The position numbers and the translations under genes are program-made. The notes beneath the pieces are model-generated. The model made no database searches. It saw nothing but the letters and a program-made list of their open reading frames with translations, and was not told the origin of the DNA. From a virus, in IMG/VR virus record IMGVR_UViG_3300049793_000366, positions 122,865 to 186,864 of that record: a DNA stretch of 64,000 bases; one strand, written 5' to 3'. Shown one piece after another: positions 27,841 to 62,982 of this stretch (position 1 is its first letter; each line of letters starts with the position of its first letter).

Positions 27841-27844
27841 TTAA

Positions 27845-28500: not shown

Positions 28501-28527
28501 TTAGAATTAAATACATATCTTTGTAGT

Positions 28528-29016: not shown

Positions 29017-29462
29017 AGAAGAAAAGAATATACATAGACATGGATGGTGTTTTGTGTGATTTCTATGGTGCTGCACGAAAAGCATTAAAAGAAAACCCAA
29101 AACAACCATTTCCTCAAGCACAGTGGGGATTTTTCCTTAAGCTTAAACCAATTGATGGTGCGCTTGAAGCATTTAATTACTTATTCGAAAATTATGATGT
29201 TTGGATCTTAACCAGACCATCTACACGTAATGTTAATTGCTATACAGAAAAAGCACAATGGGTTTGGGACCACTTAGGTGAGAAAGCAGTTGATAAGCTT
29301 ATTCTATCATGTGATAAGAATTTATTAAAGGGTGATTATTTGATTGATGATAATCACTGGGATTTTGAAGGGGAGCATATTCATTTCAATACTGAAAAAT
29401 TTCCTAACTGGGAAACAGTAGTTAAGTATATAGATTCTTCTTGTAAACAACAATTAAATTAA
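29013..29462 (+). CDS. HAD-family 5'(3')-deoxyribonucleotidase-like phosphatase
   Basis: IYIDMDGVLCDF (HAD motif I DxDG) and DYLIDDN (motif IV), colinear with the NT5C family. Confidence 0.65.
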   Translation: MKKKRIYIDMDGVLCDFYGAARKALKENPKQPFPQAQWGFFLKLKPIDGALEAFNYLFENYDVWILTRPSTRNVNCYTEKAQWVWDHLGEKAVDKLILSCDKNLLKGDYLIDDNHWDFEGEHIHFNTEKFPNWETVVKYIDSSCKQQLN

Positions 29463-43024: not shown

Positions 43025-43342
43025 ATGGACAAATCTTGGTCATTAAAGAATAAGCGTGATATTGAAAATTTATTCAGTAAGGGTAAATCATATACATCTG
43101 GTTGCATTGTAGCCAGATATGTGGACTCGACTGAAACTAAGTTTCTATTCGCTGTTAGTACCCGTCTGTATAAGCGCGCCAATAAGAGAAATAGAGTTAA
43201 GAGGTTGATGCGTGTTGCTGTTGCTGAGATAAAGAATACGGTAGTCAACAAACACGTTGCTTTTATCTATATAGATACTGATATTAAATCATTAAGTGAT
43301 ATAAAAAATAGCATAGCTGGTCTTAAATGTCTGAACCCTTAG
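43025..43342 (+). CDS. rnpA: ribonuclease P protein component (RnpA)
   Basis: RNR motif region VSTRLYKRANKRNRVKRLMRVAV (A-x-x-RNR-h-KR). N-terminal SLKNKRDIENLFSKGKS is colinear with Bacteroidetes RnpA. About 105 aa from the internal Met; the 5' extension of the track ORF (42902) overlaps the upstream gene. Ends in TAG. Confidence 0.7.
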   Translation: MDKSWSLKNKRDIENLFSKGKSYTSGCIVARYVDSTETKFLFAVSTRLYKRANKRNRVKRLMRVAVAEIKNTVVNKHVAFIYIDTDIKSLSDIKNSIAGLKCLNP

Positions 43343-44734: not shown

Positions 44735-44768
44735 TATTTGCACAATCAAAAAAAGTGTTTTATATTTG
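44735..44768 (+). promoter_or_regulatory. promoter-like region with TATTTGCACAAT box and TATATTTG (-7 type) element
   Basis: TATTTGCACAAT (44735-44746) recurs verbatim at 48230-48241. TATATTTG lies at 44761-44768. Confidence 0.35.
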
Positions 44769-48222: not shown

Positions 48223-48262
48223 AAGTCCGTATTTGCACAATACGTTAAAAGTCCGTATATTT
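48223..48262 (+). promoter_or_regulatory. direct repeat AAGTCCGTAT(A)T x2 plus TATTTGCACAAT box upstream of pncB
   Basis: AAGTCCGTAT at 48223-32 and 48249-58, 26 bp apart. GTCCGTATAT also occurs at ~26665 upstream of or within the start of the ppGpp hydrolase gene. Confidence 0.35.
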
Positions 48263-48282: not shown

Positions 48283-49482
48283 ATGATAATTCAGTCACTT
48301 CTCGATTTAGACTATTACAAACTAACAATGGGTCAATTAGCTTTCTTAAGCTTCCCTGATGTTGAAATTGAAGCCGCCTTTAAAAACAGAAAATCAAATA
48401 TTCGATTAGCGGATATTATCCCGGTTGACCGATTGATATCCGAACTCAATCATGTTAGAACTCTGGTTCTTAGTAAAGAACAGTTAAAGTTCGTTGAAAA
48501 ACAGGGCATATTTAAGCCAGAATACCGAGAGTATCTATATCAGATAAACCGTAGCAATCCTCTATCCGAAGTACGAGTAGAGGTTGTTGATGGTCAATTT
48601 GATGTGAGAACAAAGGGTAAATGGCCTAATGCCATTTTGTGGGAAACAATAGTATTAGCTGTTATTAACGAGCTATATTATGAGTATAAATACCCAAATC
48701 TCTCTTATGATGAGGGTCTTACTAGACTTGCGAATAAGATTAAAATTCTTAAAAAGCATCCACAAATTAAATTCTCTGACTTCGGTACTCGAAGAAGAGC
48801 ATCAAGAACATGGCAAGCACTTGTTGTTAATAAATTAAGACAAGCATTACCTAATCAGTTTCTTGGAACATCGAATGTTCAGTTGGCTATGGATTATAAC
48901 ATAACTCCAATTGGAACATTCGCACATGAAATGCCAATGGTTGCTTCTGGTGTTTGGTATGATACTGATGTTGAATTAAAAGCATCACATGGTAGAGTAC
49001 TTGATATGTGGTATGAGTTATATGATGTTAAATTATCAATTGCTCTTACTGATACATTTGGAACCAAATTCTTCTTTGAAGACTTCGTAGACCGCGCACC
49101 AGTTTGGAATGGTTTACGACACGATTCTGGTGATCCATTTGAATTTGGTCATAAAGTATTAGCTTACTACGCATCACTGGGTATTGATTCTAAAACAAAA
49201 ACTATTGTGTTTAGTGATGGTTTGGATTTAGATATCATCATCCGACTCGAAGCAATATTTGGTAAATTAATTAAATGCGTTTTCGGTTGGGGTACGACTC
49301 TGACAAATGACATTGGGTATGAAACATTATCTATTGTTATGAAAGCCATCCGTGCTAATGGTAATGAATTGGTTAAGCTTTCTGATAACTTAAATAAAGC
49401 TACTGGTTCCGATGCTACTAAATCTCGATACATTAGTGTATTTGGGTATGACAATCAAAAGCGTGAAGAGTGTGTAGTCTAA
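48283..49482 (+). CDS. pncB: nicotinate phosphoribosyltransferase
   Basis: Colinear with E. coli PncB: SLLDLDYYKLTM, FGTRRRAS, GLRHDSGDPFEFG, IVFSDGLDLD, VKLSDN. Confidence 0.85.
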   Translation: MIIQSLLDLDYYKLTMGQLAFLSFPDVEIEAAFKNRKSNIRLADIIPVDRLISELNHVRTLVLSKEQLKFVEKQGIFKPEYREYLYQINRSNPLSEVRVEVVDGQFDVRTKGKWPNAILWETIVLAVINELYYEYKYPNLSYDEGLTRLANKIKILKKHPQIKFSDFGTRRRASRTWQALVVNKLRQALPNQFLGTSNVQLAMDYNITPIGTFAHEMPMVASGVWYDTDVELKASHGRVLDMWYELYDVKLSIALTDTFGTKFFFEDFVDRAPVWNGLRHDSGDPFEFGHKVLAYYASLGIDSKTKTIVFSDGLDLDIIIRLEAIFGKLIKCVFGWGTTLTNDIGYETLSIVMKAIRANGNELVKLSDNLNKATGSDATKSRYISVFGYDNQKREECVV

Positions 49483-49508
49483 TAAGTAAAACCTAAAAAC
49501 AAAAACAC

Positions 49509-49808
49509 ATGGAATATAACGGTCAAACAAAAAAGGAATACGAGAAAAACTTCACACGTATTCGTGATATTATCACTAAGGCTGATGGTGATAAGGAAAA
49601 AGCTCTTCGACTTGCTAAAACACAAGCAGACAGAATAGAAGATGAATATAAAGCAATCAATCGTTCAAATGCCGCAGTAAAGCTTGGACATGAGTGGTTA
49701 GCTGACCCTTTCTTCGAAAGAGCTTATGAGCTTGGTGCTGTGGGTAAAATGGAGTACCGCGAATACAAGCTTAAGAAATTATTTGAAATGCAAGAAGAAG
49801 GAGCCTAA
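49509..49808 (+). CDS. hypothetical protein
   Basis: 99 aa ORF. Confidence 0.5.
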   Translation: MEYNGQTKKEYEKNFTRIRDIITKADGDKEKALRLAKTQADRIEDEYKAINRSNAAVKLGHEWLADPFFERAYELGAVGKMEYREYKLKKLFEMQEEGA

Positions 49809-50011
49809 TGAGACAGCAGATTCTTAAATACTTACCTATTAAAATTGCAATATTATTCTCTTTTATTACTGTGCCTCTTATCGCAGCAATATTCGTTAAT
49901 AGTGTTGTAATTTCTTACTTAATTGGTGCTATTTTTTTCGGTTTGCTACTGTTAGTTTACTATATAGTGAAGGGAAGGAAATCTCACCCAGAATTAAAAA
50001 ATAAAATTTGA
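49808..50011 (+). CDS. small membrane protein
   Basis: Two hydrophobic helices in 67 aa. Confidence 0.45.
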   Translation: MRQQILKYLPIKIAILFSFITVPLIAAIFVNSVVISYLIGAIFFGLLLLVYYIVKGRKSHPELKNKI

Positions 50012-50012
50012 A

Positions 50013-50270
50013 ATGAAAGAAGTAAGAATTCTATTAACGGAAGAAACATTCACACTTTTGTGTAAGCAGGGCTATGTTGCATATAAGAATAATATGTTTA
50101 GCGTATCTCAGATAAACATCACAAAAGCCGACTTGGAGAAGTTGATAAGCGGTGATATCATCGATAAACCACAGGATGGTGTTGACTTTAAAATTGCGTT
50201 AATGGATATCGGTTATGATAGGATTTTACCAATAATTAAACGTTCACCATTCTATGGTAATTCTATATAA
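50013..50270 (+). CDS. hypothetical protein
   Basis: 85 aa ORF. Confidence 0.45.
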   Translation: MKEVRILLTEETFTLLCKQGYVAYKNNMFSVSQINITKADLEKLISGDIIDKPQDGVDFKIALMDIGYDRILPIIKRSPFYGNSI

Positions 50271-50535
50271 AAATTTAGTATTTTGTTCAAGTATATATGG
50301 TACTAAACTGACTGGTAGAAAGGATGTGAAATTTTTAGAAGTACATTATGGTAGCGATAAAGATTTTATTGAAAAGTATCAGAAAATTTACCCAAATCAT
50401 CGAAAGGGAATATTCTTAGATGCTAGAAAACCTGTACCGAGAGATTTCAGACTCGATGTTGAACATATGATTAAGTCAGACCCACTGTTAATTCAAACAA
50501 TTCGTGATTTAAAGCTTGAAGAGTTATGTCAATAG
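50254..50535 (+). CDS. hypothetical protein
   Basis: 93 aa ORF ending in TAG. Confidence 0.45.
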   Translation: MVILYKNLVFCSSIYGTKLTGRKDVKFLEVHYGSDKDFIEKYQKIYPNHRKGIFLDARKPVPRDFRLDVEHMIKSDPLLIQTIRDLKLEELCQ

Positions 50536-50906
50536 AAGAGAAAATATTCATATATGGGTTTATGTTTATTATGCTTGGTGTTCTATACTTCATCGGATTT
50601 TTTATACGTGACTATAAACAAAAGTATCTACGTAATAAAAGAATGCAGAGGTTGAATTGGAATAAGGTATTGAAAATATTCGCGTGTGTTACTGGATTTT
50701 GTTTACTTGGTTCTATCAACAATAAAATGTTTACTTGGTATGAAGCTCCGATAATGGGATTTACTATCACTGCTGTGATTTTGTTTGCTGGTATATTTAG
50801 ACCAGAGAATGATACAAATGAGTATAAACAATTCGATAATCCTGAGTTTAAGGTATATGAGAAAGCACATCAGAGAGATAGAAAAATTAAAGATATTTTA
50901 AAATGA
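50526..50906 (+). CDS. hypothetical membrane protein
   Basis: Three hydrophobic helices in 126 aa. Confidence 0.5.
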   Translation: MSIEEKIFIYGFMFIMLGVLYFIGFFIRDYKQKYLRNKRMQRLNWNKVLKIFACVTGFCLLGSINNKMFTWYEAPIMGFTITAVILFAGIFRPENDTNEYKQFDNPEFKVYEKAHQRDRKIKDILK

Positions 50907-51457
50907 AGGTAGGATTATTCTTTGGGTCATTTAACCCAATACACTTAGGTCACTTAGAGATTGCTGAGAAATCAGCTAAATATGTAGATGAAGTTTGGTT
51001 CATTGTTTCACCTCACAATCCATTTAAGGATCCGAGTATGTTGATAAACCAAACTTCTCGATTAGAAATGGTTAAGTTAGCCGTTGAGTCTACACCGCAT
51101 TATAAAGTTAGTGATGTTGAATTTAATTTACCAACACCTACGAGAACTCATGTTACTTTAGAAAAATTAATCGAAGAACACGAGCATGAATTTTTATTGA
51201 TATTTGGTTCTGATTGTGTGAATACATTACACACATGGGAAAGAGGTGATTGGATTTTAGAAACATTTCCTATCATCGCATTTAAGAGAGAATCTGAGGA
51301 TGTAAATCCTGAAATTTATAAAAAGTTAATATCAGAAACTCATATATCATCTACGATAATACGAAATAATATTATAAATGGTTTGCCGGTTGATAGTCTT
51401 CTACCAACTTTAGTTGAGCAATACATATATAATAATGGATTATGGTCACACAAGTAA
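50903..51457 (+). CDS. nadD: nicotinate/nicotinamide mononucleotide adenylyltransferase
   Basis: GSFNPIHLGHL (HxGH nucleotidyltransferase motif) and C-terminal ISSTIIR motif. Confidence 0.8.
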   Translation: MKVGLFFGSFNPIHLGHLEIAEKSAKYVDEVWFIVSPHNPFKDPSMLINQTSRLEMVKLAVESTPHYKVSDVEFNLPTPTRTHVTLEKLIEEHEHEFLLIFGSDCVNTLHTWERGDWILETFPIIAFKRESEDVNPEIYKKLISETHISSTIIRNNIINGLPVDSLLPTLVEQYIYNNGLWSHK

Positions 51458-51711
51458 ATAAAGTACTACACTTTGATAATTCGAGAATAGAACTATCGCA
51501 AACTGGTCTTTGTTTTACTGCCTTTTTCTACACGAATGATAGCGAGAAACCTTGTTTTCATTTTAAATTTTATTCGGATGGAAAGTCGATAATTGAGGAT
51601 TTTAAGAAGGAAGCTCGTAACTATATGTCAACCAGTATATTGACTGATTTTATCAACAAAAACCCTGATGTATTACGGACAATTAATTTTGATAATTTAA
51701 TTGTTAATTGA
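51442..51711 (+). CDS. hypothetical protein
   Basis: 89 aa ORF. Confidence 0.45.
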   Translation: MVTQVNKVLHFDNSRIELSQTGLCFTAFFYTNDSEKPCFHFKFYSDGKSIIEDFKKEARNYMSTSILTDFINKNPDVLRTINFDNLIVN

Positions 51712-51730
51712 GAAAAAGTTTGTATATTTG
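51701..51730 (+). promoter_or_regulatory. Bacteroidetes-type promoter (TTG -33 element, 19-nt spacer, TATATTTG -7 element)
   Basis: TTG at 51701-03 and TATATTTG at 51723-30, about 35 nt upstream of the pncA start. Confidence 0.4.
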
Positions 51731-51765
51731 TAATTGATTAATGGACACTAAAAACCAAAACATAT

Positions 51766-52383
51766 ATGTTTAAATTAAAACCAAATACTCGTTCATTGTT
51801 CTGGAATGTTGACACTCAAGTTGACTTCATGAATTCAGAAGGTAAGTTATACGTTACTGACGCAGAACAAATCAAAGACACTTTAGCAAAAATAACCAAG
51901 TTCGCTAAAGACAACAATGTTCAGGTTGTTAATACTGCTGATTGGCATTATGCTGATTCTGCTGAGTTATCCGAAACACCTGATTTTATAAATACCTTCC
52001 CACCACACTGTATGGCTAATACGCCTGGTGCTGAGTTGATACCGGAAACAAAACCAGAAAAGTATGATTCTATCATTGATTGGAAAAATCCAAAATGTGA
52101 TATTAAAACTGACTCTACAAACTTTTTAGTCTTGAAAGATAAGTTTGATGTCTTCACTGGAAATCAGTTCACTAAAAGATTAATTGATGCTTTAAACCCA
52201 GATGTTGTTTACGTCTATGGTGTAGCTACAAATGTCTGTGTTGACTGTGCTGTTAACGGTTTACTTGATAACGGTTATAAAGTGGTTGTGTTTGAAGATG
52301 CTATTAAAGAGCTTCCAAATATACCATCACCAATACAAAATTGGATAGACAAAGGAGCAGAAATTATTAAATTCACAAACTAA
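51766..52383 (+). CDS. pncA: nicotinamidase (isochorismatase family)
   Basis: Isochorismatase-fold layout: N-terminal D..Q.DF, conserved Lys region (VLKDKFDVF), catalytic Cys in GVATNVCVDCAV. Confidence 0.75.
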   Translation: MFKLKPNTRSLFWNVDTQVDFMNSEGKLYVTDAEQIKDTLAKITKFAKDNNVQVVNTADWHYADSAELSETPDFINTFPPHCMANTPGAELIPETKPEKYDSIIDWKNPKCDIKTDSTNFLVLKDKFDVFTGNQFTKRLIDALNPDVVYVYGVATNVCVDCAVNGLLDNGYKVVVFEDAIKELPNIPSPIQNWIDKGAEIIKFTN

Positions 52384-52395
52384 AATATAAATACT

Positions 52396-53250
52396 ATGAA
52401 TACGAAAAAAGTATCAAATCACATCACCAATTGGTTAAAAGATTTTGCATTAAATACTAAACAAAACGGTTACGTTATCGGAGTATCTGGTGGAATTGAC
52501 TCCGCAGTTGTTTCGACACTATGCGCCCGTACTGGATTACCACTTATTGTTGTGAGTATGCCTATTCATCAAGAAGCTAATCAAGTTTCTCGCGCACAAG
52601 AGCATATGGATTGGTTGAAAAAAAATTATCCAAATGTAACACAGTTTGAATTTGACTTAACATCAGTTTATGATTCATTCGTAACTAAGTTAGATGGTAA
52701 AACACATTTTATTTCAAAGCCTGAGCATGATACACAGGTTGCTGATAAAATGTTCTTAACACTTGCGAATACTCGCTCTCGTTTGAGAATGACAACACTT
52801 TATTCACTTGCCGGATTAAACAATATGCTTGTTGCTGGTACTGGTAATAAAGTAGAAGACTTTGGTGTAGGATTCTTCACTAAGTATGGTGATGGTGGAA
52901 TTGATGTATCACCAATCGGTGAGTTGATGAAATCTGAGGTATACATATTGGGTGCTGAATTAGGTATAAACCAAGCAATACTTTCAGCAAGACCTACTGA
53001 TGGTCTTTGGGATGATGGTAGAACAGATGAAGACCAAATTGGTGCTACTTATGATGAACTTGAGTGGGCTATGGGTGTTCAAGAAGAATTGGGAAATAAT
53101 CCTGAGACTTTATACGAAATGAACGAAAGACAAACGATAGTGTGGAATATTTATTTGTCTCGACACACCGCTAACTCACATAAAATGCAAATGCCACCAG
53201 TTTGCTCATTAAAAGGAATTAAATATGATGAAGAAGTTGTTGCACAGTAA
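52396..53250 (+). CDS. nadE: NH3-dependent NAD+ synthetase
   Basis: PP-loop GVSGGIDSAV and GFFTKYGDGGIDVSPIG, colinear with E. coli NadE. Confidence 0.85.
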   Translation: MNTKKVSNHITNWLKDFALNTKQNGYVIGVSGGIDSAVVSTLCARTGLPLIVVSMPIHQEANQVSRAQEHMDWLKKNYPNVTQFEFDLTSVYDSFVTKLDGKTHFISKPEHDTQVADKMFLTLANTRSRLRMTTLYSLAGLNNMLVAGTGNKVEDFGVGFFTKYGDGGIDVSPIGELMKSEVYILGAELGINQAILSARPTDGLWDDGRTDEDQIGATYDELEWAMGVQEELGNNPETLYEMNERQTIVWNIYLSRHTANSHKMQMPPVCSLKGIKYDEEVVAQ

Positions 53251-53596
53251 TCTATCTGGTGTTGAGAACACCAGTGATTTAAATTATGTTTTTTCTTTAA
53301 TTAGAAAGGCATCAAATTCAATCGAAAGAACTGCTTTAATAAAAAAAGCATTGAAACTTAATGAAGAGGTTGGTGAATTATCAGCAGAAGTTTTAAGAGA
53401 AGATGGTTATAAAGACAGCACTTATACGAAAGAAGAAATTCGTAGAAGAATAATCGAAGAGGCAGTTGATTCATTAGTTATGATTGGTGATATTCTAAAC
53501 GATGTTAAAGCAACCGATTCTGAAATAATTGACTGCACCGAAGATGCTGTTACGAAATGGTTGACTAAACTCGATGAGAAGAAGAATAAAGTCTGA
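53225..53596 (+). CDS. MazG-like nucleotide pyrophosphohydrolase domain protein
   Basis: EEVGELSAEVL...EEAVDSLVMIGDIL matches the all-alpha NTP-PPase (MazG/HisE) E-x-x-E...E-x-x-D motif pair. Confidence 0.5.
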   Translation: MMKKLLHSNLSGVENTSDLNYVFSLIRKASNSIERTALIKKALKLNEEVGELSAEVLREDGYKDSTYTKEEIRRRIIEEAVDSLVMIGDILNDVKATDSEIIDCTEDAVTKWLTKLDEKKNKV

Positions 53597-53822
53597 GTGG
53601 CGTAGTGAGACTAAAAATCTCACAGAGATTGGATATCTTCAACACACCATCAATACGGTGAATGATATGATAGCAGAGACAGAGGTGTTGGTTGATAGAT
53701 TGCTCGATAAGGGTGAATTAACTGACGTTGACCGTCTTATGCTTAGAGAATTGGAAGAATATAAAGTAGGATTAAGAGAGTTAAAAGCTCAAGGAATAAA
53801 AAATTTAAAAGAAGCACTATGA
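53574..53822 (+). CDS. hypothetical protein
   Basis: 82 aa. The 5' end overlaps the previous gene, so the true start is probably an internal Met. Confidence 0.4.
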   Translation: MRRRIKSEWRSETKNLTEIGYLQHTINTVNDMIAETEVLVDRLLDKGELTDVDRLMLRELEEYKVGLRELKAQGIKNLKEAL

Positions 53823-54226
53823 AAAAATTAACAGCTTATGTTGTATTCGAAAAGGGGTACGAGTACAATGACGAAATTTATCACTTACCTGATGTAAGCG
53901 GTGGTGATCCAAAGAGAGTAACATTCTCAAAAGAAGATGCTAAGAATCTTATTACTGTGTTGAGCAGAGATTCATTCAGAGGATTGGATATTGGTAATTA
54001 TACATATGACCTAAAAGATGTAGTTGATGAAATATCTCTAAAAGAGATATTCAAAATCAATAAGTGGAAATGGGATGAAGATAATTTAACTGTTCCTGAG
54101 AAAGCAACCGATGAACAAATCGATGAGGTTATGAAATTTATTGATTTACAGTTTTATGACTTTCAGGAAGTTGAAATGGATATTGCATCAATGCGTAATG
54201 CAAAAATAGAAATAGTAGAAAGCTAA
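53819..54226 (+). CDS. hypothetical protein
   Basis: 135 aa ORF. Confidence 0.5.
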   Translation: MKKLTAYVVFEKGYEYNDEIYHLPDVSGGDPKRVTFSKEDAKNLITVLSRDSFRGLDIGNYTYDLKDVVDEISLKEIFKINKWKWDEDNLTVPEKATDEQIDEVMKFIDLQFYDFQEVEMDIASMRNAKIEIVES

Positions 54227-54762
54227 TGAATTTTAAAAATAAACCGAACCATTGTATTAGTACTGAGAATGGTCAAGTGTGGGTGTCTCGTTCGGTAGCA
54301 GTAGTGGTTACTACCTTACTACGATGTAATGATGAATTATATGCGCTTATGATTAAGCGTGGTGAGAGCGTTCATGCTTCGGGTAAATGGTGTATGCCTT
54401 GTGGTTACTTAGATTGGGATGAAACCGCGTCTGAGTGTGCTGTTAGAGAGATTTGGGAAGAATCTGGATTAGATGTTCTGGGTCTATCTAAATCTGAAAT
54501 TGAACATAATGGTTTACATAATGTGTGGGATTTAAATACTAATCCTGACTTAAATGATAGTCAAGATGTAGCTCTTCATTATTCAATAATAATATCTTCT
54601 GATAACTTTCCTAAGCTTAGTGATGAAAATGCCGAAGAGAATGAGGTAGTTGGCCTTGCGTGGGTTAAACTTTCTGAACTTGGTGAATATAACTTAGCAT
54701 TCCGTCACGACGAAAGAATAAAAAAGTTTTTGGATTACTATGAGAAGATTAAAGTTAAATAA
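54226..54762 (+). CDS. Nudix hydrolase
   Basis: Nudix box GKWCMPCGYLDWDETASECAVREIWEESGLDV (G-x5-E-x7-REUxEExGU). Confidence 0.7.
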   Translation: MNFKNKPNHCISTENGQVWVSRSVAVVVTTLLRCNDELYALMIKRGESVHASGKWCMPCGYLDWDETASECAVREIWEESGLDVLGLSKSEIEHNGLHNVWDLNTNPDLNDSQDVALHYSIIISSDNFPKLSDENAEENEVVGLAWVKLSELGEYNLAFRHDERIKKFLDYYEKIKVK

Positions 54763-54916
54763 TGAGAATGCAAGAGTAGGCGGTGTATGCGCTGGTCTTG
54801 GTGAATACTTCAATATTGATCCTGTTTGGTTTAGATTGCTTTTTGTAATTGGTTTTTTTACACCAATGATTCCTGCCGTGTTGACTTATATAATAATATT
54901 GATAGTTTTAGATTAA
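54740..54916 (+). CDS. PspC-domain small membrane protein (58 aa; not in ORF track)
   Basis: MRRLKLNNENARVGGVCAGLGEYFNIDPVWFRLLFVIGFFTPMIPAVLTYIIILIVLD is a PspC domain (GVCAGLGEYF...RL.F). Overlaps the Nudix gene 3' end by ~23 nt in another frame. Confidence 0.55.
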   Translation: MRRLKLNNENARVGGVCAGLGEYFNIDPVWFRLLFVIGFFTPMIPAVLTYIIILIVLD

Positions 54917-54917
54917 C

Positions 54918-55355
54918 ATGGAAATTTTAAATAGAAGAGCATATTACGATTATAGCATCATAGAACATTATGAAGCGGGTATTATGTTGACTGGTTCGGA
55001 GATAAAGTCAATACGAGGTGGTGAAGCAAACTTAAATGAAGCATATGTATTCATCAATAACGGCGAGGTATTCGTTAAGAATATGTACATTTCTAAATTT
55101 GAACAATCTTCATATTTGAACCATGAAGAAAAGCGTGATAGAAAATTATTACTTTCTAAAACTCAAATTTTAAAAATTGAAAAATATCTACAAACAAAAG
55201 GTACTGTGATTATACCGATAAAAGTATTTTTCAGCAAACGCTGGGCAAAACTAAAAATCGGAGTTGGTCGTGGTAAGAAAACCTACGATAAGAGAGAATC
55301 GATAAAAGAAAGAGAATCAAAAAGAGAATTGTCTCGACTGAACTCGAAAGTATAG
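54918..55355 (+). CDS. smpB: SsrA-binding protein SmpB
   Basis: Colinear with E. coli SmpB: NRRAYYDY, EAGIMLTGSEIKSIRGGEANL, GEVFV, KLKIGVGRGKKTYDKRESIKERE. Stop is TAG then TAA. Confidence 0.8.
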   Translation: MEILNRRAYYDYSIIEHYEAGIMLTGSEIKSIRGGEANLNEAYVFINNGEVFVKNMYISKFEQSSYLNHEEKRDRKLLLSKTQILKIEKYLQTKGTVIIPIKVFFSKRWAKLKIGVGRGKKTYDKRESIKERESKRELSRLNSKV

Positions 55356-55380
55356 TAAATATTTAGTTTTTTATATGTGA

Positions 55381-55408
55381 AACCGATGTCTAAAGCATCG
55401 GTTTTTTC
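55381..55408 (+). terminator. rho-independent terminator after smpB
   Basis: AACCGATG-TCTAAAG-CATCGGTT hairpin followed by TTTTT. Confidence 0.55.
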
Positions 55409-55466
55409 TTTATTGGATAAAATAAATAATATATACTCCATATATAAAAACAAGACCCATAGCACT

Positions 55467-56192
55467 ATGCCGAATTTAGAAGAGATACTTAATATGATCC
55501 AAAATCATGGAATTTTTACCACAATTTTATTTTTAGTTGGTATTGGATTTTGGGGTTTAATGAAAACAGCTTGGTTTAGTGATTTGGTTTCTAAATTTGG
55601 AGATGCACTTATTGGAAAACTTTTTAAGAAAAAAAAGCACAATGATTTAGTTGCGATTACTGAAGTGGAAATAATTAACCACGATATATTTAACTATATT
55701 GACTTGTGGCAATTCTCTATAATTCCAACTCTTAACTTTTCAACTGACTACAGAACCGTAGTATTTAGAAAGTATCTTAAAATATACTTACAGAAGCATA
55801 AAGAAAACTTAAGCAAGTTCATTACTGATGCTAAGTATAAAGATATGCCCGAATCTGAGCTTTGGAAGAGCTTTCTTCAATTGATTAATGATATTATTCA
55901 TGATTATGAGAAAGAGATGTCACACCAAGGAATTCCAGATGTAATCATCGAGAAGATGAAAGTTAAGAATAATGATACATTATCTCTTACTATTGATTTG
56001 ATTGAGGGTATTTGTAACTCACAATTCTATGGTTCTGAGAATAACTTACTAAAAGTCTATTCTATATTGAATATTATGTTATCTATACTTGAGAATACTG
56101 TCTCTGGTTCAGCCAATGTTTGTAACTCTATTAATGGTCAATTAGCAGGGTTGGAGATGGATGGACGAAAAGAACCGGATTCAAATCACTAA
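55467..56192 (+). CDS. hypothetical membrane protein (start re-called; track ORF begins at GTG 55377)
   Basis: The ATG at MPNLEEILNMIQ lies after the smpB terminator. The GTG-started 5' extension would encode the terminator hairpin itself. Confidence 0.45.
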   Translation: MPNLEEILNMIQNHGIFTTILFLVGIGFWGLMKTAWFSDLVSKFGDALIGKLFKKKKHNDLVAITEVEIINHDIFNYIDLWQFSIIPTLNFSTDYRTVVFRKYLKIYLQKHKENLSKFITDAKYKDMPESELWKSFLQLINDIIHDYEKEMSHQGIPDVIIEKMKVKNNDTLSLTIDLIEGICNSQFYGSENNLLKVYSILNIMLSILENTVSGSANVCNSINGQLAGLEMDGRKEPDSNH

Positions 56193-56236
56193 GACAGGGT
56201 GCTATTTAATATATAAAAAATAAACAACAAACAGCT

Positions 56237-56575
56237 ATGATTAAAGAAAACATTAATAAAATCGACCACGAACTAAAAGGTTTATTCGAAAACGTTACGA
56301 TTGAAGAAAAATCTGATAGAAATAGATTCTATTTTGAAATTAAGGTTTCTGGTTGTAAGCTGGATGAATCCCTGAGTGCTTGTGAAGTATCATTTCAAAT
56401 CGATAAAGGTGATTTGACTGGTAAAGAAATTAAGTGGAATTATTGGGCTAACCCTAAAACACAAGAATATCAAGTACCTCGCTTATCTCACGTTGACTAT
56501 ATCACAAAGGATATATCAGATGTTGTAATGAAGGGTAGATTAGATGCTGACTATTTGAGCGGCTTAAAAAAATAA
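56237..56575 (+). CDS. hypothetical protein
   Basis: 112 aa ORF. Confidence 0.5.
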   Translation: MIKENINKIDHELKGLFENVTIEEKSDRNRFYFEIKVSGCKLDESLSACEVSFQIDKGDLTGKEIKWNYWANPKTQEYQVPRLSHVDYITKDISDVVMKGRLDADYLSGLKK

Positions 56576-56584
56576 CTATAAATA

Positions 56585-58303
56585 GTGAATCTTAGTGAAA
56601 TTACATATAGTAAAGTTAGAGCGGAAATAGAAACGTACTTAAAAGACACCTATAATAAGGCTGGTGTTTTATTTTCACCTGCTTCGCCGTATGGTCAAAT
56701 ATTGAATGTGATGGAGAGTTTATATCAATATTCATTCCTTTACTTAAAGAACTCTATTAATCAATTCGACCTTAGCTTACCAAACTCTAATAATAAAAAG
56801 ATTATTAGAAATGCTGCTATTTTCGCAGGACACATACCTGGTCGCTCTATATCTGCTACTGGAACACTTAGATTTCACTTAAAGTCTGATATTGATATTG
56901 AAAAAGAAATACCTGGAAATAGAATAACATTATTTGATAAGACAGCTATTAAGAATAAACAAAATGGTTTAGAATATATCATTAATCTTGGTGCTGAGAA
57001 AATATCATATAAAGTATCACCGGGATTTCAATTCTTCGCGAGTCTTACACAAGGTAAGTGGGACACCCAGATTTTAACTGGTAGTGGTCAACAAAATCAA
57101 ACATTCCAGATTAATAATCCTGGTGGTCAAAAGGAGATTGAGAATTTCAATATCACTGTGACTGTAAATGGTGACTTATGGGTGGTTAAAAAGCATCTAT
57201 ATGATATGTTACCAGATGAGAACGCTTGTGTTGTTAGAACAGGGTTTAATGGTGGTATAGACGTTATATTTGGTAATGGTGGCTTCGGTGCTATTCCAAC
57301 TTTAGGAGCTGAAATAAAAGTGTCGTATATTATAACTGATGGTTCGAGAGGATCTATTTTCAGAAGAACATTAAATGATTGGAAGATATTGGATAATGTT
57401 ATGGATGGATTTGGAAACACTATCGACTTAGCTAAGATATTTGACATCTATATACACACTGACATTAACTTTGGTGCTGATTCAGAGTCAATTCAATTTA
57501 CAAAAAATGTATTACCAATCGTAAGTAATAACTTCGTACTTGGTTTACCTCAGCAATATGCTTATGAAATTAAGAAGCTGGGAGTATTCTCACATATAAA
57601 TGCATATGAAAAAGATGGTGTAATACACGTTGTTGCTACACCGAATATTAAAGTATTTAAAAATCAGAATGCTAATTACTTTACAGTTGATAAGAGAGCA
57701 TTTGAATTAGATACTTATGAGAAGATTAAGATTGATAAGTATCTTAGAACTGCTGGTAATATACAATTAACAAGAAAGTATAAGATAGTAGCACCAGTTT
57801 TATCATATTATATTATGAACGTATTTGTTATAACATATTCTGATTCAATTGATGATAATGTTAATAATCAAATCTATGATAAGGTATCTGAATACTTCTT
57901 AAATTTAAGTCGTTTGAATAGAATACCAAAACTTGATTTAATAAAAGAGTTATCATCGATTGATGATATACACTCTGTTGATATTCAATTTGTATCGAAG
58001 AAGAATGAAGATTATCACAAGTCTAATAAGATAAATGATGCCAATAGACGTAATCAATTCGCTGCTAAAGGCGCATTGCGTTTAAGCAGACCTTTCATTG
58101 GATATGATAAGAGTAAAGTTCTTGGTATAGATCCAGTCATGGGTGATATTATGTATGATAGTGAAGAGCTACCAATTATCAGAGGTGGTTGGTATGATAG
58201 AAACAATATTTATTACTCAGATAACGTAACATCAAGTGGATTCAGCTCAGTTAATATTATTAAAAAGGGAGTGGTTGATGCTAAACAAAGACCTAAATTC
58301 TAA
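56585..58303 (+). CDS. hypothetical protein (GTG start)
   Basis: 572 aa. No upstream ATG in frame (a TAA lies 2 codons upstream). Confidence 0.55.
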   Translation: MNLSEITYSKVRAEIETYLKDTYNKAGVLFSPASPYGQILNVMESLYQYSFLYLKNSINQFDLSLPNSNNKKIIRNAAIFAGHIPGRSISATGTLRFHLKSDIDIEKEIPGNRITLFDKTAIKNKQNGLEYIINLGAEKISYKVSPGFQFFASLTQGKWDTQILTGSGQQNQTFQINNPGGQKEIENFNITVTVNGDLWVVKKHLYDMLPDENACVVRTGFNGGIDVIFGNGGFGAIPTLGAEIKVSYIITDGSRGSIFRRTLNDWKILDNVMDGFGNTIDLAKIFDIYIHTDINFGADSESIQFTKNVLPIVSNNFVLGLPQQYAYEIKKLGVFSHINAYEKDGVIHVVATPNIKVFKNQNANYFTVDKRAFELDTYEKIKIDKYLRTAGNIQLTRKYKIVAPVLSYYIMNVFVITYSDSIDDNVNNQIYDKVSEYFLNLSRLNRIPKLDLIKELSSIDDIHSVDIQFVSKKNEDYHKSNKINDANRRNQFAAKGALRLSRPFIGYDKSKVLGIDPVMGDIMYDSEELPIIRGGWYDRNNIYYSDNVTSSGFSSVNIIKKGVVDAKQRPKF

Positions 58304-58305
58304 AT

Positions 58306-58560
58306 ATGCTATACGAAGATAAAGACATACCAGAGCTTCATTATATGAAGCACAGACATGATAACGTTAAGGGTACGCATAATTGGTGGGACACTATTTT
58401 AAGAAAGAACATCTCATCTTATATGTATAACAATAGTTTGATGGAGAAATATTTGGATAAATTGCAAAAACCTTTGACATTATTCTTCGACCAACACAAT
58501 ATTATAAAGAATTTTAAGAATTATATAGTAGATAAGTATCATTATAAGCATCCCGACTAA
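58306..58560 (+). CDS. hypothetical protein
   Basis: 84 aa ORF. Confidence 0.45.
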   Translation: MLYEDKDIPELHYMKHRHDNVKGTHNWWDTILRKNISSYMYNNSLMEKYLDKLQKPLTLFFDQHNIIKNFKNYIVDKYHYKHPD

Positions 58561-58638
58561 ACATAAGTCGAAAAAGTAATAAAATAGAGGTATACATTTT
58601 AATATATAATTAATAATAAAAAATAAGATAAATCGAAG

Positions 58639-59325
58639 ATGCTTAGAAAACCAAGCGAGGGAAATAGAAAAATTGATGGGTTTAAGAAATTTACCGAGTT
58701 GAAAGGCGGTAAAGCTAAATCTTCTAAAGAGGCTGATGAATTTGAAGCTGAAATGGAAGAGCAACCTCTTGATGGTAGTGAGCTTCCTGGTAATCCAAAC
58801 TTACCAGAAGAAACTTCATACACTCAAGGTAAGAAACCTTCTACTAAGAGTCCTAAGAGTATGTCTACTAAGCCAATCCAACCTGAGGAATTCGAAGGTG
58901 AAGATGATGACGATGATGACGATGAAGAGTTAAACGAAGATACCAAAGTTAGAATGATTGGTAAAGTTGCTAAATTCCCTAAAAAGGTAAAAGCATCTAA
59001 AGCGTATAACTTCCTTGAGAACGTAAAGATTTCTAAAAATTCTATTTGGTACATTATGGTTGAGAAACAAGATAATGAACTTCAAATGGTTAAGTATAAT
59101 TATAAAAAAGGTGTTGATTTAGTTAAGTTTGTTAACGAATTAAAGGGCTTTTATATTAGTAAATATGGTAAAATGAATAAAGATTTACCTAAGATACTTG
59201 AGAAAATAGAAGTTGATGGTACAGATAAGTATTCAACAATTAAAAATATCCCTTTAATCGAGTTGGGTGGTCGAAAGCTTATCGGCATCATCACTGAAGA
59301 CTTAATTAAGTTATTAAGTAAATAA
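58639..59325 (+). CDS. hypothetical protein with poly-acidic tract
   Basis: EGEDDDDDDDEELNED run with a Lys-rich N-terminus. Confidence 0.5.
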   Translation: MLRKPSEGNRKIDGFKKFTELKGGKAKSSKEADEFEAEMEEQPLDGSELPGNPNLPEETSYTQGKKPSTKSPKSMSTKPIQPEEFEGEDDDDDDDEELNEDTKVRMIGKVAKFPKKVKASKAYNFLENVKISKNSIWYIMVEKQDNELQMVKYNYKKGVDLVKFVNELKGFYISKYGKMNKDLPKILEKIEVDGTDKYSTIKNIPLIELGGRKLIGIITEDLIKLLSK

Positions 59326-59328
59326 TTT

Positions 59329-59356
59329 TAAAACCCTCTATTGAGGGTTTTTTTAT
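59329..59356 (+). terminator. rho-independent terminator
   Basis: CCCTCTATTGAGGG hairpin followed by TTTTTTT. Confidence 0.6.
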
Positions 59357-59375
59357 GAAATAAAAGTAACAGAAA

Positions 59376-59639
59376 ATGCAAGAAGTATTAGAGAAAGTAG
59401 CAGAAGAAATTAAAAGACCTAAGAGTAGGAGAAGAAAAAAGGTAGTAAGGCTCATCACACCGGAGTTGATATCTGATATTGAGTCTGAGATAATAAAGAT
59501 TGATTATTACTTAACTGGTAAATGCATACAGTTGCGTGGTAAGGGTTATCGTCCAAACGATGCTGATGAAGACCAACCAAAAAGACTCAGGTTAGAATAT
59601 TTAAGGGAGTTGAGGTTGAGGCTAATGCAATTGTCGTAA
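59376..59639 (+). CDS. small basic protein
   Basis: 87 aa, Arg/Lys-rich. Confidence 0.45.
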   Translation: MQEVLEKVAEEIKRPKSRRRKKVVRLITPELISDIESEIIKIDYYLTGKCIQLRGKGYRPNDADEDQPKRLRLEYLRELRLRLMQLS

Positions 59640-59993
59640 TTTATAATCACGTATATTGTCTAATCCAACTATCAATTCATTACCACTATACGTGACACCG
59701 TTTGATAGTACAAATGTTGCGTTATCATTATTTGAATCTTCATTTAGTGTAAGCTTTGAGTGGCTTATTCGATGGTCAAGTAAACCCTTATCATTATAGA
59801 ACATTTCAACGGATACCTTGTTGTTACAATTTATATTGGTTGCTGACGGGTCAATCATACTTTGTGCAATTTTATCAAAACCATCTGGTAGAGTTAATTC
59901 AATTGACATCATGAGGCGTTTGTTTTCTATCGTGAATACTTCGCCAGTTTCTTTAACTAAAGCCTGTTCTTTATTTTCCATCGATATAAACAA
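59622..59993 (-). CDS. hypothetical protein
   Basis: 123 aa ending in TAG. Its 3' end overlaps the convergent gene by ~18 nt. Confidence 0.45.
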   Translation of the reverse strand: MFISMENKEQALVKETGEVFTIENKRLMMSIELTLPDGFDKIAQSMIDPSATNINCNNKVSVEMFYNDKGLLDHRISHSKLTLNEDSNNDNATFVLSNGVTYSGNELIVGLDNIRDYKLRQLH

Positions 59994-60195
59994 TTTCTGG
60001 GTTATCTTGTGGTTTCCATCTACGTAGTGATACTATCTTGTCTGGTTCGTTAAATACACGAGCATCTGAGACTTTATCTGTCCAAATTGGACCATCTGAT
60101 TTTAGCCCAGCAAAATACATAGCATCTTTATTCATAATCCAAAAGTCTCGTTTTGGTTCTGATACTATATTAACTTTTAATTTATACTTAGACAC
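59971..60195 (-). CDS. hypothetical protein
   Basis: 74 aa ORF. Confidence 0.45.
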   Translation of the reverse strand: MSKYKLKVNIVSEPKRDFWIMNKDAMYFAGLKSDGPIWTDKVSDARVFNEPDKIVSLRRWKPQDNPEIVYIDGK

Positions 60196-61209
60196 TTATT
60201 CAGCGAATGAAAGGTTAAGCTGTTCGATTGATTGTTTCTCTTCAAGACTAATAATAGCCCTTGCTATCATTTTGTCGCATGATATAACGTGTAACTTGTC
60301 GGATTGTTTATTAACAGCTATTGTGTCTGATATAATCAATTCAGTTAATACAGAAGAGTTAAGATTCTCGATAGCATTTCCGGATAGAATACCATGTGTA
60401 GCAATAGCACGTACTGACCTAGCACCATTTTCCATTACCAACTCACTTGCTTTCTTTAAAGTACCTAATGTATCAGCCATATCATCTATGATAACAACAT
60501 TGCGGTCTTTTACATCAGCACCCATTAATTCCATTGAATGAATTTCATTTGGTTTAACTCGGCGTTTATTTATCTGAGCGAAGTGTGCTTCTGGGAAATA
60601 TTTAGCAAAGTCTAATGCTCTTTTTACACCACCTTGGTCTGGTGACATTATTGTTAGATTTTCAAGAGCAAGTGACTTGATGTAGTTTGTGAAAATTTTA
60701 CCACCATTTAAGTGAATAACTGGTATGTTGAAGAATCCTTGAATTGCAGATGCGTGTAAATCAATTGTGATGATTCGTGTTGCTCCACCTCTTTCATAGG
60801 CATCAGCCATAACCCTTGCTCCAATTGATGAACGAAGGTGGTCTACCTTATCTTGACGTGAGTAACCATAATATGGTGTCACGAGTGTTATTTCTTTAGC
60901 ACCAGCTCTTTTAGCAGCATCTAATATCAACATAGTTTCCACGATAGAATCAGAAGAACTTGTTGTTTGTATAATATAGATATCTTTACCACGCACAGAC
61001 TCATTGAAAGTTGGGAATATCTCACCATCTTTGAATTTCTCAATCTTTAAATCACCAAGACCCGTACTTTGTGGTGTCAGTAGACTTGTAGCTTGTTGCG
61101 ACAATACGATTTTATTAATACTATCAGCGAGTGATTCGCTTGATGTTCCAGAAAAAATAGTGAATGTGTTCATAATAGTGGTATTAATTTTTTGATGAAA
61201 TGTTTTCAT
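60196..61209 (-). CDS. prs: ribose-phosphate pyrophosphokinase (PRPP synthetase)
   Basis: Colinear with E. coli Prs: FKDGEIF, YYGYSRQDK, IITIDLHASAIQGFFNIPVIHL, PRPP-binding loop VVIIDDMADTLGTL. Confidence 0.85.
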   Translation of the reverse strand: MKTFHQKINTTIMNTFTIFSGTSSESLADSINKIVLSQQATSLLTPQSTGLGDLKIEKFKDGEIFPTFNESVRGKDIYIIQTTSSSDSIVETMLILDAAKRAGAKEITLVTPYYGYSRQDKVDHLRSSIGARVMADAYERGGATRIITIDLHASAIQGFFNIPVIHLNGGKIFTNYIKSLALENLTIMSPDQGGVKRALDFAKYFPEAHFAQINKRRVKPNEIHSMELMGADVKDRNVVIIDDMADTLGTLKKASELVMENGARSVRAIATHGILSGNAIENLNSSVLTELIISDTIAVNKQSDKLHVISCDKMIARAIISLEEKQSIEQLNLSFAE

Positions 61210-61705: not shown

Positions 61706-62054
61706 TTAGAACTTCATTAAGTTTGTTTCCTCTGTAAATTGACTTATTTGGTTTAGTCGTTTTATATATCTTATTAAGCCAAGTACCTAAGTCTAAAGCT
61801 TGTCTTGAATTATAATAATGTGAAGACCTCTCGCTATAAAATTTGCTATGAATATCTTCTTGTTCATGTTCCTCGAAAGAGTCCCACCATACAGGATCTA
61901 TTAGCATTTTAACCTGAGTACCAAATGTTTTTAATTGCCTTTTCTTCTCACGTCTTCTCGCTCTATCATTATGATATTGAGAATCTTCGTTGTCTTGCTT
62001 TTCTCTCCAACGTTGTACTTGAGGTTCATTTAAATATCTGTTATTTTTCATCAT
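61689..62054 (-). CDS. hypothetical basic protein
   Basis: 121 aa, Arg/Lys/Glu-rich N-terminus. Confidence 0.5.
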   Translation of the reverse strand: MMKNNRYLNEPQVQRWREKQDNEDSQYHNDRARRREKKRQLKTFGTQVKMLIDPVWWDSFEEHEQEDIHSKFYSERSSHYYNSRQALDLGTWLNKIYKTTKPNKSIYRGNKLNEVLSDEKI

Positions 62055-62685
62055 TCAGTTTTGCTTTTTTCCAATTTTTAGTCCAGTGAACATCTGTTTG
62101 TACGTGTCCTTTTCTTACCCACTTCATAACACTTGTTGAAAAATCATCGTTGTGAAATGCGTCAGCTTTTCTTATAACAATACCTTCTCTTTTTCCACCA
62201 AGTATAGACTCTTTTTGTGATAACTCTTCTACGGTGCTTCTGAGTTCTTTCTCATTGGTGATAATACCATTGAAGAGTACGGGTGTTGTCGGAAGGTCTA
62301 AAAGAAATGAATATTCTTCAACAGTAGACCATGGTACCCATATTTCACCATCGCGTACACCGAACATATAAAAATATGATTTTAGATTTGAATATTCGAT
62401 AGAGTGTATACCATACATATTCTCACCGAAGATGTAAGTATCTAAATCTATTGAAAGTTTTATGCGTTGCCATATATCCCACATTGGTCTATCCCAAGCA
62501 TTTTCGGAGTGAGCGGCATGAGAACGTCCGAATACACCGTATCTTTCAAGTGTTGTGTTGGAGCCATCAAGTTTTTCAGTTATGATAACTGGTATATTCA
62601 ATAGTGAATCTACTGAATGTGAAATACGGTCATCCGATGTAGCACCGGGTGAGAACGGTAAGTGGTATGTTCTTGCGTATTTCAT
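62041..62685 (-). CDS. ATP-dependent RNA ligase (Rnl2-like nucleotidyltransferase domain)
   Basis: Motif I EKLDGSN (KxDG), motif III IFGENMYG, motif IV REGIVIRK and motif V VMKWVRKGH, in the same order and spacing as the T4 Rnl2 NTase domain. Confidence 0.6.
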   Translation of the reverse strand: MKYARTYHLPFSPGATSDDRISHSVDSLLNIPVIITEKLDGSNTTLERYGVFGRSHAAHSENAWDRPMWDIWQRIKLSIDLDTYIFGENMYGIHSIEYSNLKSYFYMFGVRDGEIWVPWSTVEEYSFLLDLPTTPVLFNGIITNEKELRSTVEELSQKESILGGKREGIVIRKADAFHNDDFSTSVMKWVRKGHVQTDVHWTKNWKKAKLNDEK

Positions 62686-62748: not shown

Positions 62749-62982
62749 TTAAGCGTCTTTTTCTAATATTTCTGATAATCTTCTATCTCTATCTTCAAGT
62801 CTCTCTTCTATTATCCGTAACCTATCCGCTGCATTTCTATCCATAATTTCATACCAAGTGCCTGATTTATAGCTCATTACACGCTCTGATTTTATATCAA
62901 AGTAACAATCACCGTCCACTGGATTCGTGGGTTGTGATTGGTGGAATGTAACATCCACGAGTGTATAATCACTAATAGACAT
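62749..62982 (-). CDS. hypothetical protein
   Basis: 77 aa ORF. Confidence 0.45.
   Translation of the reverse strand: MSISDYTLVDVTFHQSQPTNPVDGDCYFDIKSERVMSYKSGTWYEIMDRNAADRLRIIEERLEDRDRRLSEILEKDA

Follow-up and report, generated by a model that had tools for sequence, protein, structure and literature searches.

A 64,000-bp stretch of viral DNA (positions 122,865 to 186,864 of IMG/VR record IMGVR_UViG_3300049793_000366; the whole stretch is called the window below) encodes PncB, NadD, PncA and NadE together with a Nudix hydrolase in a 6.5-kb block, and a phosphoribosyl pyrophosphate (PRPP) synthetase, Prs, farther downstream. We consider it likely, with a probability of about three in four, that this cluster is a phage-borne form of the bacterial four-step deamidating nicotinamide salvage pathway, which would supply nicotinamide adenine dinucleotide (NAD+) and give partial relief from NADase defence. 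Depletion of NAD+ is a major bacterial anti-phage strategy. All six open reading frames (ORFs) were found at the positions and on the strands given in the initial annotation, with which their families and motifs agree, and intact pncA, pncB, nadD and nadE genes cover every step from nicotinamide to NAD+. The description of the cluster as a five-enzyme Preiss-Handler set had to be corrected: the Preiss-Handler pathway proper consists of PncB, NadD and NadE, the addition of PncA makes it a four-step deamidating salvage pathway, and the Nudix hydrolase is an accessory protein that catalyzes none of the steps.

The four salvage enzymes

The enzymes (Table 1) were compared with database profiles, with solved structures and with four related loci, namely L003 (a 709-kb NCBI contig, PncB 76% identical), L005 and L006 (PncB 68% identical) and L004 (OU342829.1, a 657-kb uncultured marine megaphage, PncB 50% identical). 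PncB exceeded the cutoffs of two nicotinate phosphoribosyltransferase (NAPRTase) profiles (NF003704, 417 bits against a cutoff of 379; TIGR01514, 332 against 269) and contains both the N-terminal and the catalytic NAPRTase domain (PF17767 and PF04095). Its matches in the PDB were NAPRTases only, the best being the Agrobacterium tumefaciens enzyme (1YBE, 260 bits). His215 in the motif GTFAHE, which we take to be the autophosphorylated histidine of PncB enzymes, aligned with GTNAHE of 1YBE and was invariant in 20 homologues. NadD was recognized by TIGR00482 (132 bits against a cutoff of 112), carries the motifs HLGH (residues 14-17) and ISSTIIR (residues 148-154), had Bacillus subtilis NadD (1KAM, E 8e-24) as its top PDB match, and is kept in L003, L005 and L004.

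The PncA-like protein matched the Pfam family Isochorismatase (PF00857, 68 bits against a cutoff of 27), and 10 of its 13 PDB matches were nicotinamidases or pyrazinamidases, led by 1ILW (Pyrococcus horikoshii), 3PL1 (Mycobacterium tuberculosis) and 2H0R (yeast Pnc1). An Asp/His/His metal site sets nicotinamidases apart from other isochorismatase-like hydrolases; the corresponding residues D59, H61 and H81 aligned with D52, H54 and H71 of 1ILW and were invariant in 41 sequences, as was the triad D16/K124/C158, with the homologues of the cultured phages Atu_ph07 and Phosso included. HMMER paired K107 with K94, the catalytic lysine of the P. horikoshii enzyme; however, K107 varies among the relatives whereas K124 is invariant, indicating that K124 is the likely catalytic lysine.

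NadE scored 161 bits with TIGR00552 (cutoff 64) and 172 bits with the equivalog model NF010587, below the cutoff of 255. It is a single-domain protein without a glutaminase domain and has the PP-loop motif SGGIDS (residues 31-36) and TKYGDGG at residue 162. Its PDB matches were NH3-dependent NadE enzymes, with that of Francisella tularensis (3FIU) in first place at 131 bits and the runner-up at 92 bits. Because 3FIU is the nearest solved relative, a different order of reactions could hold, in which NadE would act as a nicotinamide mononucleotide (NMN) synthetase on nicotinate mononucleotide (NaMN) and the adenylyltransferase would then convert NMN into NAD+. F. tularensis NadE reportedly prefers NaMN, and TIGR00482 spans both nicotinate and nicotinamide nucleotide adenylyltransferases. 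However, the adenylyltransferase of the cluster is of the NadD rather than the NadM type, and NadD enzymes generally favour NaMN. We regard the Francisella order as distinctly unlikely.

The pathway enzymes, the Nudix hydrolase and Prs are all full length with their catalytic motifs present. Nonsynonymous differences (pN) amounted to 0.14-0.24 per site against saturated synonymous differences (pS) of 0.62-0.74 in comparisons with L003 and L005, indicating purifying selection; for PncB against L003, pN/pS was 0.156/0.723. Paralogues lacking catalytic residues, which the initial annotation had named among the findings that would speak against it, were not seen. As far as sequence comparison can tell, the annotation of the four pathway enzymes and Prs is sound.

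In the proposed pathway, for which enzyme activities, co-transcription, the Nudix substrate, the coupling of Prs and the effect on defence are predictions, the genes would be expressed during infection within a long co-directional block. PncA would convert nicotinamide into nicotinic acid, PncB would join nicotinic acid and PRPP to give NaMN, NadD would adenylate NaMN to nicotinate adenine dinucleotide (NaAD), and NH3-dependent amidation by NadE would turn NaAD into NAD+. The nearby canonical Prs could provide the PRPP. The megaphage would in this way keep or raise the NAD+ pool of the cell from free nicotinamide or nicotinic acid without host enzymes.

Assignment to a megaphage genome

The identical PncB sequence was found on two independent assemblies, a 185-kb Logan contig and a 711,805-bp JGI contig, where the gene call has a shorter N-terminus than in the window. 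Based on the JGI contig and judging by sequence, we assign the cluster to a "Mahaphage-like" megaphage of ~712 kb. The window is AT-rich throughout, with a uniform GC content of ~0.31-0.35, and contains PHROG matches of virion type (baseplate wedge, head decoration and virion structural proteins). Two huge phages, LR745206 and LR756502 (635-642 kb), encode proteins with 62-65% identity to a 1066-aa window protein, which has more distant kin in Lak and Tenacibaculum jumbo phages. The virion matches and the huge-phage genes in the flanks bear out the initial assignment of the element to a phage.

It is extremely improbable that the cluster is cellular DNA that entered the record through host contamination or chimeric assembly. 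All of the enzymes do have close cellular homologues, and many of the PncB matches in IMG/VR are host genes at prophage edges. However, huge-phage genes, a baseplate-like gene among them, lie on both flanks, the sequence was assembled twice independently, the GC content is uniform, and the same gene order occurs in three further assemblies.

The nearest cellular homologues of PncA, with 54-58% identity, come from Marinilabiliales and related Bacteroidota, in keeping with a host from this phylum. The 6.5-kb block had no megablast match among phage records, and tRNA/tmRNA (transfer-messenger RNA) and Rfam scans across the window found none.

The Nudix gene is followed by an ORF for a small PspC-domain membrane protein and, directly after it, by the gene for SmpB (NF003843, 186 bits against a cutoff of 130); the order Nudix-PspC-SmpB is kept in L003, L005 and L006. 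The phage SmpB is 44-46% identical to the smpB product of two Bacteroidota loci, L012 (a Prolixibacter-type contig) and L014 (Marinifilum), in which the nearest cellular PncA homologue (55-56% identity) lies ~2.5 kb from smpB (L012 5001-8706 and L014 5001-8498). The spacing of PncA and SmpB in the phage (window 51766-55355) is about equal to that in these two loci, a likeness that could be a coincidence or the remnant of a joint capture from a host chromosome.

Conservation and recurrence of the cluster

The gene order PncB...NadD-PncA-NadE...Nudix-PspC-SmpB is shared by L003, L005 and L006. In L004, the genes for PncB, Nudix, NadD, PncA and NadE lie within 8.5 kb in a different order, and the 735-kb phage LR756501 has genes for a PncA-like protein, NadE and PncB within 8.5 kb. 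A PncB scan of IMG/VR returned 80 loci with an alignment as the query and one locus only with a single sequence. About 34 of the 80 loci, near-identical prophage-edge fragments in which PncB lay at the contig end, were set aside as probable host genes, leaving 46 informative loci. Neighbouring genes were detected with hidden Markov models (HMMs) built in this analysis (E<=1e-5), and some of the short contigs may be cellular. PncA, NadD and NadE occurred within 10 kb of PncB in 17 of the 46 loci. The contigs of six of these 17 measure 100 kb or more, up to 578 kb, and a Nudix ORF was present in nine of the 17. The synteny and co-occurrence in related phages that had been suggested as a check were found.

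Synteny in the relatives, purifying selection and recurrence in unrelated phages together indicate that the clustering is meaningful rather than due to chance. The four enzymes travel as a module, which repeatedly draws a Nudix enzyme and sometimes a Macro-domain enzyme. The present locus, from a phage lineage that ranks among the largest known, is a clean and intact example with conserved synteny.

Two of the nine Nudix-bearing loci, L049 (70 kb) and L066 (578 kb), have an apparent NadD-Nudix fusion, in that both HMMs match a single ORF (from 8668 and 8647, respectively) beside the genes for PncB, PncA and NadE. NadE also occurs by itself: in LR756502.1 (L015, 455644-456360), a homologue had no PncB, NadD or PncA gene detected nearby, and solitary-looking nadE genes are present in T4-like cyanophages and Pelagibacter phage HTVC008M, where the phage collection gave no PncB match. 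The homologues in LR756502.1 and in the cyanophage and pelagiphage records are 45-52% identical to the NadE of the window.

The Nudix hydrolase and the Macro-domain gene

The Nudix hydrolase has a perfect Nudix box (GX5EX7REUXEEXGU, G60-L82). Its family is small (61 matches) and mostly metagenomic, with R74, E75, E78 and E79 invariant. The best PDB matches of the family profile were the NadM-Nudix ADP-ribose pyrophosphatase (ADPRase) of F. tularensis (2QJT, 48.7 bits) and the ADP-ribose (ADPR)-binding Nudix domain of Shewanella oneidensis NrtR (3GZ8, 48.3 bits). An AlphaFold2 (AF2) model with a predicted local distance difference test (pLDDT) score of 94 gave a mixed list of top Foldseek matches, consisting of RenU, NrtR with ADPR, NudJ and NadM-Nudix, at template modelling (TM) scores of about 0.6. 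Both comparisons make ADP-ribose or an NAD-related dinucleotide a plausible and, tentatively, the likeliest substrate.

Alternatively, the protein could be a MutT-like nucleotide-sanitizing or RNA-decapping enzyme and a mere neighbour of the salvage genes, a reading that we hold to be possible but somewhat doubtful. A single-sequence search matched NUDT15, MutT-like proteins, NudJ and Dcp2, and the JGI gene name is MutT. A proline ~16 residues after the Nudix box is a signature of ADPRases, and by our reading of the sequence no proline occurs ~16 residues past the box in this protein. However, the gene is kept with the module in L003, L005 and L006, Nudix ORFs accompany nine of the four-enzyme loci in IMG/VR, two of them as the apparent fusions, and the profile matched ADPR-binding Nudix domains of NAD metabolism best. 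In addition, at least three mutually dissimilar Nudix types adjoin NAD modules: those of the window, of L004 and of Atu_ph07/Phosso share no similarity detectable at E<=1e-4, suggesting that Nudix enzymes have been recruited repeatedly. The L004 protein looks NudF-like in our reading of its sequence.

A Macro-domain gene lies directly 3' of PncB in L003, L005 and L006 (Table 1). No trace of it was found anywhere in the window, which has three phage-specific small ORFs instead.

PRPP synthetase

Prs is a class I PRPP synthetase that exceeded the curated cutoff of NF002320 (328 bits against 297) and matched B. subtilis Prs best in the PDB (1DKR, 229 bits). DLHA occurs at residue 150, KRR at residues 215-217 (in NKRR from 214) and DDMADTLGT at residue 242. 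The protein is 63% identical to the Prs of LR756502, and its relative position is kept in L003. The gene lies past the baseplate-like gene and adjoins genes for a MazG-like protein, an RNA ligase and thymidylate synthase.

Prs and PncB were also considered as a possible form of NARP1, one of three NAD+ reconstitution pathways (NARP1, NARP2 and NARP3) that have been shown experimentally in phages; none of the three uses PncA, PncB or NadE. NARP1 rebuilds NAD+ from the products of NADases and, like the window, relies on a PRPS-family and a phosphoribosyltransferase-family protein (Adps and Namat, respectively; PMC13586617), which are usually annotated as Prs and Nampt. If the window held a disguised NARP1, ADP-ribose would be pyrophosphorylated by its Prs acting as an Adps, and its PncB would be a Namat-like enzyme that joins nicotinamide to ADP-ribose pyrophosphate (ADPR-PP), the NARP1 intermediate. 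However, besides its high scores, Prs has the canonical DDxxDTxGT loop, whereas an Adps is marked by a remodelled PP loop. Its identity to the phage "Prs" proteins of Felixounavirus, Pakpunavirus and ICP1 (hundreds of sequences) is only 22-30% over part of the length; these proteins are taken as the Adps type by inference rather than by direct comparison. PncB matched NAPRTases and not Nampt or Namat, and the two genes, which in NARP1 adjoin each other, have opposite orientations here with 10.7 kb (49482 to 60196) between them. This candidate was rejected on these grounds, and its probability is minimal.

Comparison with known systems

The gene set has already been described and is common in very large phages, and a counter-defence role has already been proposed for this class. 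Li et al. (2024, Microbiome; PMC11662467) reported a complete salvage or Preiss-Handler pathway in 174 of 668 gut jumbo phages, found such "NAD-jumbo phages" across ecosystems, described clustered pncB-nadD-nadE genes in Kuafu_71, and proposed counter-defence and NAD+ supply from genomes without experiments. NAD-jumbo phages are defined by a genome above 200 kb and at least one complete salvage or Preiss-Handler NAD+ pathway, and the present megaphage, with 711,805 bp and PncB, NadD and NadE plus PncA, is one of them. It resembles those of Li et al. in being a huge phage with a physically clustered, complete NAD+ route and a likely Bacteroidota host. In contrast to the window, the text of PMC11662467 has a three-gene cluster and refers to pncA in passing, and Nudix, Prs and PRPP are absent from it. 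According to the predictions of Iyer et al. (2021; PMC7824862), jumbo phages counter NAD+ restriction by the host through NAD+ synthesis of their own, and ADPR is processed in these phages by Nudix and Macro enzymes.

The same module is present in two cultured phages, and the locus is of value as a pointer to them. Sinorhizobium phage Phosso (PV764938.1) encodes NadE, PncB, a MutT-like Nudix protein, an NMN adenylyltransferase (NMNAT) and a PncA-like "hydrolase" in 6 kb of co-directional genes. Agrobacterium phage Atu_ph07 (NC_042013.1) encodes a PncA-like protein, a cytidyltransferase, a Nudix protein annotated as ADPR pyrophosphatase, and PncB; a search for NadE in Atu_ph07 gave no match. 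Both phages share with the window the clustering of salvage genes and a Nudix gene in a jumbo phage genome; however, they are unrelated phages of Alphaproteobacteria with another gene order, enzymes only 27-37% identical to those of the window and a Nudix protein of another type. The initial annotation held that the phage routes described so far comprise two enzymes, which is correct for the validated NARP systems but not for the genomic literature and deposited annotations. Its view of the cluster as a distinct new solution does not stand, being preceded by the clusters of Li et al., by Phosso and Atu_ph07 (the latter without NadE) and by the frequent loci in IMG/VR.

NARP2 and the NadV-NatV pair of Vibrio phage KVP40 (Nampt plus NMNAT-Nudix) are similar to the cluster in leading from nicotinamide to NAD+, in using PRPP and in having an adenylyltransferase-linked Nudix domain. 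They follow a two-step amidated route via NMN, whereas the window would use PncA, PncB, NadD and NadE via deamidated intermediates. Neither Nampt (NARP2) nor PnuC and NadR (NARP3) occurred in the Pfam annotations of the window and flank genes. The bacterial PncA-PncB-NadD-NadE salvage pathway, as outlined in PMC9316036, has the same four families and the same predicted chemistry; in contrast, the window set is virus-borne, interleaved with small phage ORFs and coupled to a Nudix gene, and in the relatives also to a Macro-domain gene. A literature search found no paper in which a deamidating route of phages had been tested against NADase defences. This route is common in large phages, and its recurrent coupling to Nudix and Macro enzymes keeps it of interest.

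Possible benefit to the phage

The likeliest benefit of the pathway would be to secure NAD+ through a long and demanding infection. It would include partial relief from NADase-type abortive infection, with nicotinamide, a product of NADases, serving as the input. The analogy with NARP1-3 makes a role in counter-defence plausible. A purely auxiliary metabolic module, supplying NAD+ for replication only (for example, to NAD-dependent ligase, RNA repair, ADP-ribosylation and redox metabolism) and without an anti-defence role, is a serious contender to which we give somewhat less than even odds. It overlaps with salvage as proposed here and differs in the selective benefit alone. The company of housekeeping-type genes in the window (MetRS, CoaE, guanylate kinase, Prs, SmpB and RNA ligase) argues for it, as do the apparent host origin of PncA and the review literature, which reads NAD+ genes of jumbo phages as resource supply. 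However, NARP2 and NARP3 likewise consist of ordinary salvage enzymes and do overcome NADase defences, the input of the pathway is what NADases release, and the Nudix and Macro neighbours point to the handling of ADPR.

Several observations weigh against four-step salvage with relief from NADases. The PncA-like protein scored 48 bits with the NCBIfam PncA equivalog (NF008623), below the cutoff of 174; this model is built on enterobacterial PncA, and the protein of the window is of a Bacteroidota-type subfamily. The closest sequenced relatives, LR756502 and LR745206, have no PncB, and the module is thus dispensable in this phage group. The deamidating route is longer and uses more ATP than the Nampt route, and it may be too slow against an active NADase. 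The lead of the Nudix profile over NUDT15 is marginal (48.7 against 45.5 bits) at a TM score of about 0.6. Finally, the initial annotation saw in Prs a nearby source of PRPP. A canonical Prs is indeed present, but it is encoded 5.4 kb away on the opposite strand amid nucleotide-metabolism and RNA-repair genes; we infer its coupling to the NAD module from function, and Prs is as likely to serve nucleotide synthesis.

The repeated coupling to Nudix and Macro genes suggests a more elaborate form of counter-defence, a closed deamidating loop that would rebuild NAD+ from both NADase products with canonical enzymes only, similar in effect to the NARP systems. Nicotinamide would enter via PncA and PncB, the Nudix hydrolase would split ADP-ribose into AMP and ribose-5-phosphate, Prs would turn ribose-5-phosphate into PRPP for PncB, and NadD and NadE would complete NAD+. 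In the relatives, the Macro protein encoded beside PncB would first trim ADPR derivatives. We consider such a loop rather unlikely; if it were true, the dissimilar Nudix types near the modules of unrelated phages would reflect repeated selection for the coupling.

Small ORFs and transcription signals

Ten small ORFs interleave with the enzyme genes, and six of them are kept in the relatives. Within the PncB-NadD gap, ORFs 49509-49808 and 50013-50270 are kept in relatives according to tblastn, and ORFs 49808-50011, 50254-50535 and 50526-50906 are phage-specific, two of the latter looking membrane-spanning by sequence. The 123-aa product of ORF 53225-53596 shows the pattern EEvGEL...EEavD and weakly matched three MazG-like PHROGs (E 1e-3 to 6e-3); Pfam, the PDB and BLASTP against the PRA-PH protein of the window gave nothing in support of a MazG-like protein. 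It may be a MazG-like pyrophosphohydrolase.

The genes between ~43.3 and 59.6 kb are all co-directional. A terminator-like hairpin directly after SmpB, which runs into the beginning of the following gene call, may end a co-directional unit running from PncB to Nudix-PspC-SmpB, and no comparable site was found on the + strand within 48283-55355. The co-directional genes and this lone strong hairpin make co-transcription of the module possible. In a sigma-70 promoter scan, matches were not above those in shuffled sequence. Bacteroidota-type promoter elements (-33 TTTG and -7 TAnnTTTG) lie in intergenic positions upstream of several + strand genes, at 48233-48262, 51723-51730, 44737-44768, 24196-24227 and 5069-5100; PncA has a perfect -7 box ahead of it, and PncB has a near-match. 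The -33/-7 motif was not enriched across the window and is therefore treated as a lead only.

Table 1. Features of the salvage cluster and its surroundings. Positions are those of the window unless a locus is named.
Feature	Position	Strand	Remarks
PncB, nicotinate phosphoribosyltransferase	48283-49482	+	399 aa; nicotinic acid + PRPP -> NaMN
Five small ORFs in the PncB-NadD gap	49509-50906	+	No significant Pfam or PHROG family
NadD, nicotinate-mononucleotide adenylyltransferase	50903-51457	+	184 aa; NaMN + ATP -> NaAD
Small ORF	51442-51711	+	89 aa; 43% identity to its positional counterpart in L003; no family match
PncA-type nicotinamidase	51766-52383	+	205 aa; nicotinamide -> nicotinic acid + NH3
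NadE, NH3-dependent NAD+ synthetase	52396-53250	+	284 aa; NaAD + ATP + NH3 -> NAD+
Three small conserved ORFs	53225-53596, 53574-53822, 53819-54226	+	Kept in L003 and L005
Nudix hydrolase	54226-54762	+	178 aa; PF00293, 63.5 bits
PspC-domain membrane ORF	54740-54916	+	58 aa; directly 5' of SmpB
SmpB	54918-55355	+	
Terminator-like hairpin	55379-55405	+	11-bp stem, then T-run; directly 3' of SmpB; consensus match only
Prs, canonical class I PRPP synthetase	60196-61209	-	337 aa; ribose-5-phosphate + ATP -> PRPP; public gene call begins at M13 (60196-61173)
Macro-domain gene	L005 3443-3898; L006 3528-3983; L003 11197-11655		151-152 aa; PF01661, 27.8 bits, and weak ThsA_Macro match (L005)
MetRS-type class I tRNA synthetase core	5239-6504	+	421 aa; PF09334, E 1.7e-40
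Guanylate kinase	22549-23115	+	
Dephospho-CoA kinase CoaE	24247-24873	+	
HD_4 RelA/SpoT-like hydrolase	26663-27301	+	
AAA_33 kinase	28528-29016	+	
NT5C 5'-nucleotidase	29013-29462	+	
RNase P protein component-like gene	43025-43342	+	105 aa; precomputed Pfam match PF00825
Rnl2-type RNA ligase (PF09414) and MazG/PRA-PH-like protein	62041-62685, 62972-63631	-	RNA-repair-type genes

Other genes of the window

Genes for small-molecule and nucleotide metabolism form a stretch on the + strand at 22549-29462 (Table 1), in which CoaE points to a second cofactor pathway touched by the phage. The methionyl-tRNA synthetase (MetRS)-type protein is below typical MetRS length; the marine megaphage locus L004 encodes a 432-aa counterpart with identical Pfam families. 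The RNase P-like gene, an unusual cargo for a phage, occurs at the same position in L003. RNA-repair-type genes lie near the end of the window, and the upstream flank just beyond the window (L008, 122-2108) encodes a CCA-adding/poly(A) polymerase-family enzyme and a 2H phosphoesterase.

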